DNA from: Naegleria gruberi
Lineage: Eukaryota
Reading direction: 5' to 3' (one strand)
Assembly: GCA_000004985.1 (NCBI GenBank)
Contig: GG738863.1
Length of the DNA: 64,000 bases
In this document: positions 25,461 through 62,960 of the stretch, piece by piece
Numbering within the stretch: the first letter of the stretch is position 1
Layout of the letters: every line of letters begins with the position of its first letter
Notes under the pieces: generated by a model
The model's database searches: none
The model's input: only the letters and a program-made list of their open reading frames with translations
What the model was told of the DNA's origin: nothing
Translations under genes and position numbers: made by a program

Positions 25461-26110
25461 ATGTCGAACAGTTTCAATCTTTTGGAACACGCTTCAAACA
25501 GCGATCCACTCGAAATTGCTTCATCTGCCAAGAAGGAAGTTAAGCAAGAAAAGCCAAAAGTTGAAGAAAAGAAGCCAGTTCAACAACAAAGAAAGCCAAA
25601 GCCAACTTCTGCTCCATCCGAAGTTGTCGAAGAAGGTTTCCAAGGAACCCGTTCTAAGACTAGAGGTGGTAGACAACAACACCAAGGATACCAACCACCA
25701 AAGAAGGGTAGAACTTTCGATCGTCATGTCTCTGGTACTGGTANNNNNNNNNNNNNNNNNNNNNNNNNNNNNNNNNNNNNNNNNNNNNNNNNNTTCCAAA
25801 AGGAAAAGAAGAAGGTTGAAAAGGCTGCTGAAAAGAGTCTGCTGCTTCTAAGCCAAAGACTGTTGCTGTTTCTGAATTCTTAGATACTGCTTCAATTGAA
25901 AAGATCAAGGAAAGAAGAGATAAGGAATTGTTGGAAGGTCCAAAGCAACCAAGAGGTCCAAGACAAGACAGACCAGAAAGAACTGATAGAAAGGGTGGTA
26001 AGCCACAAAACAAGGGTCAAAAGGGTGCCAAGCCAGCCTCAGGCCAAAAGAAGCCACGTCCAGTCATCAACAAGGAAAAGGACTTCCCTGCTCTCAGCCC
26101 ACAAAACTAA
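25461..26110 (+). CDS. Stm1/SERBP1/HABP4-family mRNA-binding, ribosome-associated protein; interrupted by a gap and an apparent frameshift
   Basis: N-terminus 'MSNSFNLLEH...RGGRQQHQGYQPPKKGRTFDRHVSGTG' (Stm1_N-like). The C-terminus 'PRGPRQDRPERTDRKGGKPQNKGQKGAKP...KEKDFPAL' is typical of the family. The 50-N gap at 25744-25793 and a +2 frame change near 25838 (AAEKS|SAASKPKTVAVSEF) split it into three track ORFs. Confidence 0.6.
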
Positions 26111-26162: not shown

Positions 26163-26861
26163 TTATTCATAATTTATTTTAGCACTTTTCCATGTTTTTC
26201 CCCAATTTTCATCTGTTTGAATATGACCCTTTCTTACATACTTGGCAATATTTCGTTCAAAATCCTTGTTTGCAAATGTTTGAGTTGATTTGATAACAAA
26301 TCCTTCTAGACCTTCTCCTCCTCCGACTTGACTAATCTTCTTATCTTTAATTCTTTCATCCATCCATTGTTTAATTTCATCAAGAGAAGTGAATGTACCT
26401 CTGTATAGAACTGGAACAATTGGAACCATACTCGATAAATCATTATCATTAATAAAATTGATCATTTCATCCCATCCATACCATCTATTATCTTGTAAAT
26501 CTAAAATTGCAAATAAATAAAAGTATGATTTCAAATTATTATATTCTATAGAGTGAATTCCGTACATATTCTCTCCAAACAATACTAAATGATCAGGTAT
26601 CAGAAATGAAAATTGAGAATATAATTGTTTGATAGGTCCAAAACTTGCATGTGTTGCCTCCTTATTTGTTGTTCTAGCAAAGATCTTTCCTTGAAATAAT
26701 TGACAATTGCCACCATCCATCTTTTCGGTAATAATCACTTCTTGACCAACAAATTGTGTACAATGTTGATTGGAAAGTACAACATCATCATCTTGATGTT
26801 CGGGAGAGAATGGTAAATGTGGTGTTTTTGGATACTTTTGTGTTTGAAATTTAGATGCCAT
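26163..26861 (-). CDS. ATP-dependent RNA ligase-like nucleotidyltransferase domain protein (Rnl2/PF09414-like, stand-alone)
   Basis: 232 aa. Motif I is 'ITEKMDGGN' (KxDG with the lysine nucleophile). Motif III-like is 'LFGENMYG'. Motif IV is 'EGFVIK'. Motif V is 'KYVRKG'. No kinase or CPD domains are attached. Confidence 0.6.
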   Translation of the reverse strand: MASKFQTQKYPKTPHLPFSPEHQDDDVVLSNQHCTQFVGQEVIITEKMDGGNCQLFQGKIFARTTNKEATHASFGPIKQLYSQFSFLIPDHLVLFGENMYGIHSIEYNNLKSYFYLFAILDLQDNRWYGWDEMINFINDNDLSSMVPIVPVLYRGTFTSLDEIKQWMDERIKDKKISQVGGGEGLEGFVIKSTQTFANKDFERNIAKYVRKGHIQTDENWGKTWKSAKINYE

Positions 26862-27540: not shown

Positions 27541-27614
27541 AAATAAAAAATACGCCGTAAGGGAGTCGAACCCTTGACCTTCAGCGTGTAAAGCTGACGA
27601 TCTAACCAACTGAT
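27541..27614 (-). tRNA. tRNA-Val (anticodon UAC)
   Basis: The reverse complement GCGCCGTTAGATCAGTTGGTTAGATCGTCAGCTTTACACGCTGAAGGTCAAGGGTTCGACTCCCTTACGGCGTA folds into a canonical cloverleaf with a 7-bp acceptor stem (G1·U terminal pair). The D-arm is GATC/GATC with an AGTTGGTTA loop. The anticodon stem is TCAGC/GCTGA, the loop is TTTACAC (anticodon TAC). The T-arm is AAGGG-TTCGACT-CCCTT. The discriminator is A. There is no intron and no encoded CCA. Confidence 0.85.
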
Positions 27615-27821
27615 CTAACGGCGCTTGCAACATTTCCAAAAAATTTCCTAACTAATCAAATCAACATTAAAATCCTAAATGTAAACTTGTCCTTTTTCTT
27701 GTTCTTAATAGCTATCAGTAAAGATAAAGTAAATTTTCATTTCTTCTCCTCACTTTCAATAGTTTCATCAAATAATAAATTTATATTTAAATAAATTCGC
27801 AAATGAACAAGAAGTAAAAAA

Positions 27822-60929: not shown

Positions 60930-62398
60930 NNNNNNNNNNNNNNNNNNNNNNNNNNNNNNNNNNNNNNNNNNNNNNNNNNNNNNNNNNNNNNNNNNNNNNN
61001 NNNNNNNNNNNNNNNNNNNNNNNNNNNNNNNNNNNNNNNNNNNNNNNNNNNNNNNNNNNNNNNNNNNNNNNNNNNNNNNNNNNNNNNNNNNNNNNNNNNN
61101 NNNNNNNNNNNNNNNNNNNNNNNNNNNNNNNNNNNNNNNNNNNNNNNNNNNNNNNNNNNNNNNNNNNNNNNNNNNNNNNNNNNNNNNNNNNNNNNNNNNN
61201 NNNNNNNNNNNNNNNNNNNNNNNNNNNNNNNNNNNNNNNNNNNNNNNNNNNNNNNNNNNNNNNNNNNNNNNNNNNNNNNNNNNNNNNNNNNNNNNNNNNN
61301 NNNNNNNNNNNNNNNNNNNNNNNNNNNNNNNNNNNNNNNNNNNNNNNNNNNNNNNNNNNNNNNNNNNNNNNNNNNNNNNNNNNNNNNNNNNNNNNNNNNN
61401 NNNNNNNNNNNNNNNNNNNNNNNNNNNNNNNNNNNNNNNNNNNNNNNNNNNNNNNNNNNNNNNNNNNNNNNNNNNNNNNNNNNNNNNNNNNNNNNNNNNN
61501 NNNNNNNNNNNNNNNNNNNNNNNNNNNNNNNNNNNNNNNNNNNNNNNNNNNNNNNNNNNNNNNNNNNNNNNNNNNNNNNNNNNNNNNNNNNNNNNNNNNN
61601 NNNNNNNNNNNNNNNNNNNNNNNNNNNNNNNNNNNNNNNNNNNNNNNNNNNNNNNNNNNNNNNNNNNNNNNNNNNNNNNNNNNNNNNNNNNNNNNNNNNN
61701 NNNNNNNNNNNNNNNNNNNNNNNNNNNNNNNNNNNNNNNNNNNNNNNNNNNNNNNNNNNNNNNNNNNNNNNNNNNNNNNNNNNNNNNNNNNNNNNNNNNN
61801 NNNNNNNNNNNNNNNNNNNNNNNNNNNNNNNNNNNNNNNNNNNNNNNNNNNNNNNNNNNNNNNNNNNNNNNNNNNNNNNNNNNNNNNNNNNNNNNNNNNN
61901 NNNNNNNNNNNNNNNNNNNNNNNNNNNNNNNNNNNNNNNNNNNNNNNNNNNNNNNNNNNNNNNNNNNNNNNNNNNNNNNNNNNNNNNNNNNNNNNNNNNN
62001 NNNNNNNNNNNNNNNNNNNNNNNNNNNNNNNNNNNNNNNNNNNNNNNNNNNNNNNNNNNNNNNNNNNNNNNNNNNNNNNNNNNNNNNNNNNNNNNNNNNN
62101 NNNNNNNNNNNNNNNNNNNNNNNNNNNNNNNNNNNNNNNNNNNNNNNNNNNNNNNNNNNNNNNNNNNNNNNNNNNNNNNNNNNNNNNNNNNNNNNNNNNN
62201 NNNNNNNNNNNNNNNNNNNNNNNNNNNNNNNNNNNNNNNNNNNNNNNNNNNNNNNNNNNNNNNNNNNNNNNNNNNNNNNNNNNNNNNNNNNNNNNNNNNN
62301 NNNNNNNNNNNNNNNNNNNNNNNNNNNNNNNNNNNNNNNNNNNNNNNNNNNNNNNNNNNNNNNNNNNNNNNNNNNNNNNNNNNNNNNNNNNNNNNNNN
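60930..62398. other. Assembly gap: 1469 N, the largest of six N-runs
   Basis: An uninterrupted run of n. The other gaps are 13245-13294, 20863-20942, 25744-25793, 34587-34834 and 57542-58056. ORF-track entries made of X residues across these gaps are artefacts. Confidence 0.99.
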
Positions 62399-62960
62399 CT
62401 AATGCTTGACAAGATAGAGAGTCACCCCAATCACATACCTAACCTAGATTGGAACTCTATCAACGTCAGCTACCTTAAATCCCATTTGTCTCCTAAATCT
62501 AAATATTATATTTGGAGAAACTCTTCAAATGCCCACATCAATTTTGGTGAGGGTAAAAGTTTCTGTCATGATTGTAACACAGAATCTGACCTTAATCACT
62601 ATATTCATGAATGCCCTGCTCTGGATAGTGCCAGATACTTTTGCTTGTCAAAAATATCTGATATTCTTGATCAGAGAGAGTGTAAACTCACTCATATTCA
62701 ATTCAGACCAGAAAAGCATCACCATGTACTCTTCTTCCACCATTCTGGAACCACATTCTTCGAAGATGGATACGTACAACAATACCCAGACATTGCAGAG
62801 AAATGGCCTGAGATCCAGGGAGCCATTTCTAACTTTGTCGGCCGCTCCTATAGATATTATTATATTGACTCAATGTAAATTTACAAATTCAAAGAGAATC
62901 TGAATAGATTCGTTATTATTGCAATAAAAGATTTTTTATTTAAATAAAATTAAACGATTT
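62399..62960 (+). mobile_element. Non-LTR (LINE-like) retrotransposon 3' fragment: C-terminal end of ORF2 with a CCHC zinc knuckle, followed by a 3' UTR with an AATAAA signal
   Basis: ORF 62402..62878 is open from the gap edge. It contains 'CHDCNTESDLNHYIHEC' (C-x2-C-x7-H-x4-C), the zinc finger characteristic of the ORF2 C-terminus of non-LTR retroelements. The region is visibly less AT-rich than its surroundings. AATAAA at about 62925 is followed by A-rich sequence. The 5' remainder lies in the 1469-N gap. Confidence 0.5.

Follow-up and report, generated by a model that had tools for sequence, protein, structure and literature searches.

A Naegleria gruberi protein of the DR_B0100 (LigB/DdrP) family of RNA-ligase-like adenylyltransferases

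A ligase-type gene on contig GG738863.1

The subject of this report is a gene in a 64,000-nucleotide stretch of the Naegleria gruberi genome (assembly GCA_000004985.1, contig GG738863.1), which as a whole is called the window here. On the minus strand, positions 26163..26861 hold a ligase-type coding sequence (CDS) that is complete in a single exon, runs from ATG to TAA and specifies 232 amino acids (aa). The product matches a database entry of N. gruberi, EFC45507.1 / XP_002678251.1 / NAEGRDRAFT_66741, at 100% identity; the entry bears the annotation "predicted protein" and lies on a 468 kb scaffold. Judged by sequence, this protein represents the DR_B0100 (LigB/DdrP) family in a eukaryote, and its annotation can become "LigB/DR_B0100-type RNA-ligase-like adenylyltransferase."

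In Pfam, the RNA_ligase profile PF09414 matches the protein at E 7.2e-30 (104.8 bits against a cut-off of 27 bits), covering profile positions 2-171 of 171 and residues 41-209. Because of this match, the identity to the database protein and the residues that are invariant across 76 family members, the open reading frame (ORF) is a genuine gene and not a chance feature. A preliminary description of the window had described a stand-alone nucleotidyltransferase domain with the covalent motifs of polynucleotide ligases and had proposed a PF09414 search, which now supports this over the whole domain, with the motif-I lysine intact. Also as that description had it, the protein is free of kinase, CPD, OB and C-terminal domains, both in Pfam and in a single-domain AlphaFold2 (AF2) model.

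Nucleotidyltransferase motifs and two family signatures

Conservation was scored on a family alignment of 76 members, with T4 Rnl2 as the reference for residue mapping. The 232-aa frame contains all four motif strings previously named, in the expected order between residues 46 and 212, and K47, D49, G50, R63, E97, E186, G187 and K207 are invariant in the alignment. Motif I (EKMDGGN, residues 46-52; 26706..26726, minus strand) includes K47, encoded at 26721-26723, which pairs in alignments with K35 of T4 Rnl2 and K40 of DR_B0100 and is the predicted AMP-accepting lysine. Motif III (LFGENMYG, residues 94-101; 26559..26582, minus) carries E97, the partner of T4 Rnl2 E99, next to a glycine (G96) that is conserved in at least 90% of members. 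In motif IIIa, F117 pairs with T4 Rnl2 F119 at an equal spacing of 20 residues, and the following position, D120 in T4 Rnl2, is occupied by A118; the aspartate is thus absent, and A118 itself is not conserved in the family. Motif IV (EGFVIK, residues 186-191; 26289..26306, minus) aligns E186 and K191 with T4 Rnl2 E204 and K209, the two residues standing five apart in both proteins.

Motif V was correctly located by the preliminary description (KYVRKG, residues 207-212) and is atypical. K207 corresponds to T4 Rnl2 K225, each lying 21 residues past the motif IV glutamate; since this spacing is identical, V209 falls at the position of T4 Rnl2 K227, so that the second motif-V lysine is replaced by a valine that is invariant in all 76 members. 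Motif V forms part of a longer C-terminal family motif, AKYVRKGHIQTDENW (residues 206-220; 26202..26246, minus), in which K207, V209 and H213 are invariant and R210, Q215 and W220 are conserved in at least 90% of members (consensus KxVRxxHxQTDxxW). A second family-specific motif lies near the N terminus, KYPKTPHLPFSP (residues 9-20; 26802..26837, minus), with H15 and S19 invariant and K9, Y10, T13, L16 and P20 each conserved in at least 90%. Its consensus is KYPxTxHLPxSP, and D26, shortly downstream, is invariant as well. The N-terminal motif is also present in DR_B0100 and, under a strict pattern, in 5 of 10 fused eukaryotic proteins to which we return below.

The DR_B0100 family and its extent

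The link to Deinococcus came from a plasmid search, which matched D. radiodurans megaplasmid MP1. The published primer for cloning DRB0100 is identical to the start of the matching MP1 CDS, and downstream of this CDS lie a TIGR02452 (PARG-like) gene and then a gene for a 413-aa "AAA family ATPase"; the primer match and the operon order LigB, PARG-like, HD-Pnk identify the CDS as DR_B0100. In BLASTP the Naegleria protein is 36% identical to DR_B0100 (E 3e-41, residues 9-220), and this match, taken with the common N- and C-terminal signature motifs, places it in the same family, an assignment that the preliminary description had missed.

DR_B0100, of 210 aa, is the first gene product of the radiation-induced operon DR_B0100 / DR_B0099 (PARG) / DR_B0098 (HD-Pnk). 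Both proteins consist of the nucleotidyltransferase domain alone, with similarity over 91% of the Naegleria protein, and have in common the N-terminal KYPxxPHLPxSP, motif I in the form VxTEKxDG and the motif V and tail KxVRxGHxQTDxxW; the adenylylated lysine of DR_B0100, K40, is K47 in Naegleria. They differ in that the Naegleria protein has about 20 extra terminal residues and a longer loop ahead of motif IV. Its gene, unlike that of DR_B0100, is monocistronic and nuclear, has no HD-Pnk or PARG neighbor and belongs to a eukaryote-specific clade.

The preliminary description regarded small eukaryotic proteins of this kind as rare. Eukaryotic members are patchy in occurrence and not exceptional, and the family as a whole is widespread: in an exhaustive profile search, 854 representatives of clusters made at 50% identity reached E <=1e-30, and 2255 reached E <=1e-10. 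When genomes of bacterial and archaeal species were scanned, at least 544 bacterial species proved to have relatives, among them Paenibacillus, Brevibacillus, Streptomyces, Myxococcota, Deinococcus and Saprospiraceae, with a best bacterial identity of 43%. Jumbo phages carry family members too (Atu_ph07, XacN1, the CcrBL9 group, SCTP-2 and uncultured phages of 460-735 kb), and the family matches phrog_34045 and phrog_24030 in PHROG. The member in Xanthomonas phage XacN1, ORF260 (L087:2983-3633), is labeled "2'-5' RNA ligase," a probable misannotation. Most members are 205-235 aa long, and a protein of the DR_B0100 type is a nucleotidyltransferase domain of ~210-230 aa without an accessory nucleic-acid-binding domain. 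LigB/DR_B0100 has been a puzzle since 2007, being a widespread, radiation-induced "ligase" that charges itself with AMP and joins nothing in standard assays. The Naegleria protein is a new eukaryotic member of an already known, functionally unresolved family, and not a new type of system.

Fold and position among the classical ligases

An AF2 model built on the 76-sequence alignment is a single domain of high confidence (predicted local distance difference test [pLDDT] 93.8, predicted template modeling score 0.91), the last ~20 residues being less certain (pLDDT 67-80 in the tail). In fold comparison, the closest structures were NgrRnl of the Rnl5 family (5cot; score 15.9), the N-domain of T4 Rnl2 (15.4), MthRnl of Rnl3 (14.2) and the Rnl2-type REL1 (14.0), all four about equally close; DNA ligases followed at 10-12.6 and capping enzymes at 9 or less. 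An mRNA capping enzyme, which the preliminary description had named as a non-ligase family that might take the best hits, is thus the best match neither in fold nor in profile, and its OB domain is absent.

Sequence comparison gives a similar picture. Queried as a single sequence, the Naegleria protein matched nothing among PDB sequences; the family profile reached solved structures weakly, namely the ligase domain of Candida glabrata Trl1 (E 9e-6, a partial match confined to motifs III-IV) and T4 Rnl2 (E 0.07). NCBIfam gave no match above threshold and a sub-threshold one to TIGR01209. The PADLOC defense-system models matched neither the Naegleria protein nor DR_B0100, so the former is not a cataloged anti-phage component.

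Ligase families are told apart by their flanking domains (PMC4408790), and the Naegleria protein has 40 residues ahead of motif I and ends 22 residues past R210. The flanking domains of Rnl1, Rnl3, Rnl4 and Rnl6 were not found in it, including the C-terminal domain of Rnl1 and Rnl6 (T4 Rnl1, Trl1) and the kinase and CPD domains of Trl1. Rnl5 (NgrRnl, DraRnl) is defined by an N-terminal domain of ~125 aa on which adenylylation and nick sealing depend (PMC4408790); this domain is absent as well, and sequence identity is 17%. The signature C-domain of Rnl2 is likewise missing. With closeness in fold spread over Rnl2, Rnl5 and Rnl3, and with Trl1 nearer by sequence profile, the protein is a generic RNA-ligase-type nucleotidyltransferase and not specifically an Rnl2. 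The earlier term "Rnl2-like" remains apt for the superfamily and fails for the family.

These comparisons bear on the simplest functional proposal, that of a classical Rnl2-type nick sealer in which the lone domain would carry out all three steps on 3'-OH/5'-PO4 nicks in duplex RNA. The catalytic motifs speak for a relationship of this kind, but T4 Rnl2 and REL1 have the C-terminal domain that in Naegleria is replaced by ~20 low-confidence residues after motif V, and the Rnl2 active-site set is incomplete, with Val209 and Ala118 in place of K227 and D120. The isolated nucleotidyltransferase domain of T4 Rnl2 is impaired in overall ligation. The corresponding domain of NgrRnl by itself retains only 4% of nick sealing (PMC4408790). 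DR_B0100 (PMC1997131) and a ligase-like protein of Runella (PMC6097658) seal no nicks. We consider a classical Rnl2 sealer decidedly unlikely.

A census of N. gruberi by Unciuleac and Shuman counted 13 ATP-dependent RNA ligases, made up of 7 Rnl1, 5 Rnl2 and 1 Rnl5 (PMC4408790). XP_002678251.1 is not among their 13 accessions, which makes it a 14th candidate ATP-dependent ligase of this species.

Partner genes in bacteria

Bacterial relatives offer a view of the company that this domain keeps. We examined 81 bacterial loci for partners on the same strand within 2.5 kb of the family gene, and in 70 of them an HD-Pnk-like sequence (HD plus an AAA_33 P-loop kinase) lay beside the family gene or was fused to it. 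The arrangement varies with lineage: in Firmicutes the HD-Pnk-like gene is upstream and has the order kinase-HD, elsewhere it is downstream and has the order HD-kinase, and in some Actinobacteria HD-Pnk and ligase are fused (for example at L037 and L039). The Deinococcus family gene adjoins PARG. According to a report from the Shuman group, a ligase-like ORF of Runella slithyformis lies upstream of HD-Pnk in a cluster that also holds Tpt1 and MTase-HIT (PMC6097658). This ORF overlaps the HD-Pnk start, a layout seen again in Bacteroidota loci L002, L019 and L064, and from this gene arrangement we infer that the Runella protein belongs to the DR_B0100 family.

Directly after the ligase-HD-Pnk fusion of Thermomonospora echinospora, L037:7869-10757 encodes a 962-aa multidomain protein that combines MJ1316 RNA-cyclic-end recognition, EEP, a 2H (LigT-like) phosphoesterase and a PAP-like nucleotidyltransferase. 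This large actinobacterial neighbor looks like an uncharacterized RNA-end processing machine, to judge by its domains. Similar ORFs of ~960-1480 aa occur at L065, L066, L071 and L078.

Other neighbors recur within single groups. In Firmicutes, a SUFU-family gene follows the pair of Pnk-HD and ligase in ~15 loci (for example L001:6859-7938), and a 554-aa DUF6138 protein follows it in 8 loci (for example L011:7871-9535); both examples are Paenibacillus / Brevibacillus loci. The only further recurrent neighbors in the Bacteroidota loci were DUF6265, DUF3841 and a PIN-domain gene, none of them informative. Two loci, L033 (Candidatus Multivorans) and L055 (a metagenome-assembled genome of Spirochaetia), lack an adjoining HD-Pnk; at L055, an AAA_15/AAA_21 ATPase gene lies ~370 bp upstream of the family gene. 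Among the labeled bacterial sequences, these two alone at times join the clade of eukaryotes.

Fused proteins in other eukaryotes

The top-scoring family representatives in the profile search were multidomain eukaryotic proteins with two ligase domains, a P-loop kinase of the AAA_33/tRNA-ligase type and, in some, 2H-SAK and PTP-SAK. We take them to be the eukaryotic 'Swiss Army Knife' RNA-repair proteins of Burroughs and Aravind 2016 (Pfam 2H-SAK PF22547, PTP-SAK PF22784). They were found in the euglenids Peranema (P0130) and Entosiphon (P0131), in the labyrinthulid Hondaea (P0146) and in metagenomic sequences (P0132-P0141). In each, one ligase domain is of the same DR_B0100 type as the Naegleria protein, to which it is 42-50% identical over the full length of the latter, and bears the family motif I VVxTEKLDG and motif V KYVRxxH. 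The second ligase domain is divergent (22-30% identity to the Naegleria protein) and of the FPRTSHL / EEKVDG / AKIVR type. A member from the foraminiferan Bolivina runs on into a kinase P-loop. Whereas the Naegleria protein is the bare domain, the 'Swiss Army Knife' proteins measure 650-2357 aa and add to it the kinase-like domain, the 2H phosphoesterase, the PTP-type phosphatase and the second ligase.

Such fusions constitute independent "Rosetta-stone" evidence that the family works in RNA end-healing and sealing, and they supply candidate co-factors for biochemical assays. Bacterial linkage and eukaryotic fusion both tie the domain to end healing by 5'-kinase and 2',3'-phosphoesterase, mostly of an RNA-specific type.

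The Peranema kinase and second ligase, when used as a query, uncovered a large fungal and protist family. A kinase plus RNA-ligase-domain protein of Capsaspora owczarzaki (P0301) is labeled "DNA ligase III," probably a misannotation.

A putative role in RNA heal-and-seal repair

We favor, with moderate confidence, a reading in which the Naegleria protein is a DR_B0100-family orthologue that serves as a component of RNA-end heal-and-seal repair, depends on a partner or an unusual end and has been inherited vertically in Heterolobosea. In its first step the protein would adenylylate itself at K47, as expected from homologues that have been tested experimentally. It would then supply the adenylylating or sealing activity in heal-and-seal repair of broken RNA ends, whose 5'-PO4 and 3'-OH termini would be made in trans by a separate 5'-OH kinase and 2',3'-phosphoesterase; both the bacterial gene linkage and the domain fusions of other eukaryotes suggest this. 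To transfer AMP and form the phosphodiester, the last step, it probably requires a protein partner or a non-standard end, since it lacks a substrate-binding appendage and the second lysine of motif V and since the biochemistry of the homologues was negative.

That biochemistry is the first of several lines of evidence that weigh against the heal-and-seal reading. In DR_B0100, AMP becomes covalently attached at K40, and a K40A mutant is inactive; across many conditions the protein nevertheless ligated no DNA or RNA, whether by itself or together with DR_B0098 and DR_B0099 (Blasius 2007, PMC1997131). The Runella protein poses the same puzzle: it forms enzyme-AMP and sealed none of the 3'-OH/5'-PO4 substrates tested (PMC6097658). 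Its gene, unlike that of Naegleria, is bacterial and operonic. Reproducible ligation is on record for no family member. Val at the K227 position and Ala118 at that of D120 may mean that what follows step 1 is not the chemistry of classical ligation. Within Naegleria itself, no partner gene lies near the ligase gene, the neighbors in the window being housekeeping genes with no HD-Pnk or PARG adjoining; operons are not to be expected in a eukaryote such as Naegleria. The query with the Peranema kinase and second ligase found no Naegleria protein among its best 120 matches.

Also to be set against the heal-and-seal reading is the radiobiology of Deinococcus, which leads to the proposal of a DNA-repair ligase that would join ends or seal nicks only with accessory proteins, as claimed for LigB with PprA. 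Munir and Shuman reportedly found in 2017 that HD-Pnk heals DNA ends as well as RNA ends. In Deinococcus, ionizing radiation (IR) induces the operon, and loss of HD-Pnk sensitizes cells to IR (PMC6300522, PMC5397189); both findings are as suggestive of DNA as of RNA. In the sole positive report, Kota 2010, as summarized in a review, DNA ligase activity was seen only with PprA and the operon partners (PMC6300522). The same review states that many LigB-bearing species are without PprA, which that activity requires, a finding that tells against a DNA ligase as well as against our own reading. Mutant phenotypes of ligB are contradictory, and a DR_B0100 mutant had wild-type IR resistance in one study (PMC6300522). 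Together with the absence of DNA ligation in the hands of Blasius, alone or with the operon proteins, this argues against a DNA-repair ligase. So do the linked and fused modules, which are RNA-specific (MJ1316, 2H phosphoesterase, Tpt1, tRNA-ligase-type kinase), the nearest folds, which are those of RNA ligases and not of DNA ligases, and the lack of an OB or DNA-binding domain. On this balance, a DNA-repair ligase seems unlikely.

The enzyme-AMP without joined product observed in two laboratories (PMC1997131 and, for Runella, PMC6097658) could also be taken at face value, as the mark of an adenylyltransferase that is not a ligase and stops after AMP transfer. Such an enzyme might 5'-adenylylate RNA or mark it in cap-like fashion, AMPylate a protein or small molecule, or process modified ends such as ADP-ribosylated or 2'-phosphorylated ones. 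DR_B0099 is a PARG that acts on ADP-ribosylated nucleic-acid ends (PMC11833690), and linkage to PARG and Tpt1, whose chemistry concerns ADP-ribose and 2'-phosphate, fits this proposal. So do the invariant Val in place of the second motif-V lysine, the additional invariant His, Ser and Asp outside the classical motifs, and the fused eukaryotic proteins, where the domain always stands beside a second, different ligase domain that could do the sealing. Yet the family conserves motifs I, III and IV together with the first lysine of motif V, tight linkage to the makers of 5'-PO4/3'-OH ends has the syntax of heal-and-seal repair, and no alternative acceptor is known. A non-ligase function is accordingly doubtful, in our estimation.

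A further and rather unlikely idea is that the DR_B0100 clade acts on a non-canonical RNA end or as a 5'-adenylylating subunit that feeds a second ligase. Candidate ends are a 2'-phosphorylated one and a 5'-phosphate or 2'-OH end that bears ADP-ribose. This would explain at once the failure of sealing in two laboratories, the linkage to Tpt1 and PARG, and the constant pairing with a second ligase domain in the fusions; if true, eukaryotes such as Naegleria would carry a previously unrecognized RNA-end repair step.

Vertical inheritance in Heterolobosea

The heal-and-seal reading includes a vertical nuclear gene of Heterolobosea with no recent import from bacteria. Family members are present in Naegleria, Willaertia, Acrasis, Pharyngomonas and strain BB2, and identity to the N. 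gruberi protein amounts to 78% in N. lovaniensis, 76% in Willaertia magna and 56% in Acrasis kona. In both N. lovaniensis and Willaertia the ligase gene is convergent with a HABP4/PAI-RBP1 (HABP4/Stm1-like) gene, as it is in N. gruberi. The N. lovaniensis orthologue has two GT..AG introns, the N. gruberi copy is intronless, and the span of the Acrasis gene, 836 bp for 257 aa, implies an intron. Other labeled eukaryotes with the family are the diplonemids Diplonema and Flectonema, the choanoflagellate Didymoeca and the Rhizaria Bolivina and Amorphochlora; the protein is stand-alone in Heterolobosea, diplonemids and the choanoflagellate, and fused in euglenids and the labyrinthulid.

Phylogeny was addressed with a crude neighbor-joining (NJ) tree (Kimura distances, 196 sequences, most of the metagenomic ones taxonomically unlabeled). 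The 13 labeled eukaryotes formed a clade free of labeled bacteria and phages in 80/100 bootstraps, and Heterolobosea were monophyletic in 72/100. The family thus has a coherent eukaryotic branch, and the value of the Naegleria finding is as a pointer to that branch and its fusion partners.

The preliminary description had asked whether the gene is a horizontal acquisition. In its extreme form, the question is whether we are looking at contamination, or at a very recent transfer from a bacterium or phage that has no integrated eukaryotic function. The family is mostly bacterial or phage-borne, the N. gruberi copy lacks introns, and distribution among eukaryotes is patchy, all of which would suit a transfer. 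The kept synteny and the introns of the heterolobosean orthologues nevertheless make a recent transfer into Naegleria unlikely, and the NJ eukaryote clade argues in the same direction, as does a best bacterial identity of only 43%, against 56-78% among the heteroloboseans. The gene sits on a long scaffold among an ordinary eukaryotic set of genes (PDI, Stm1/HABP4-like, U1-C, SNF2 helicase, phospholipase B), and its GC content of ~31% is that of the surrounding DNA. Contamination or very recent transfer has already been largely refuted and strikes us as highly improbable, and recent acquisition in any form as unlikely; the data would accord with acquisition long ago, once or in several early events, and with patchy occurrence among eukaryotes.

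Surroundings of the gene in the window

The one tRNA gene of the window, tRNA-Val(TAC), occupies 27551-27624 (minus strand) and has the ligase gene on one side and the U1-C gene on the other. The preliminary description had placed it 680 bp upstream of the ligase gene and thought the placement probably coincidental. It does lie upstream, at a measured 690 bp from the start codon. In N. lovaniensis, Willaertia and Acrasis, the fetched flanks of the ligase orthologue (6 kb on each side) contained no tRNA, nor did the flanks on a fourth, related eukaryotic contig; a linkage of tRNA-Val to the ligase gene was rejected on the strength of these four other eukaryotic loci, which bear out coincidence.

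Two runs of N in the window are assembly gaps. One, at 25745-25793, breaks up the Stm1/HABP4-like gene, which lies directly downstream of the ligase gene. The other, at ~60930-62400 (~1.47 kb), lowers the apparent GC content of the bins at 60-62 kb, and the long ORFs of AT-rich appearance at 60.9-62.4 kb (490 aa, on both strands) are an artefact of this gap.

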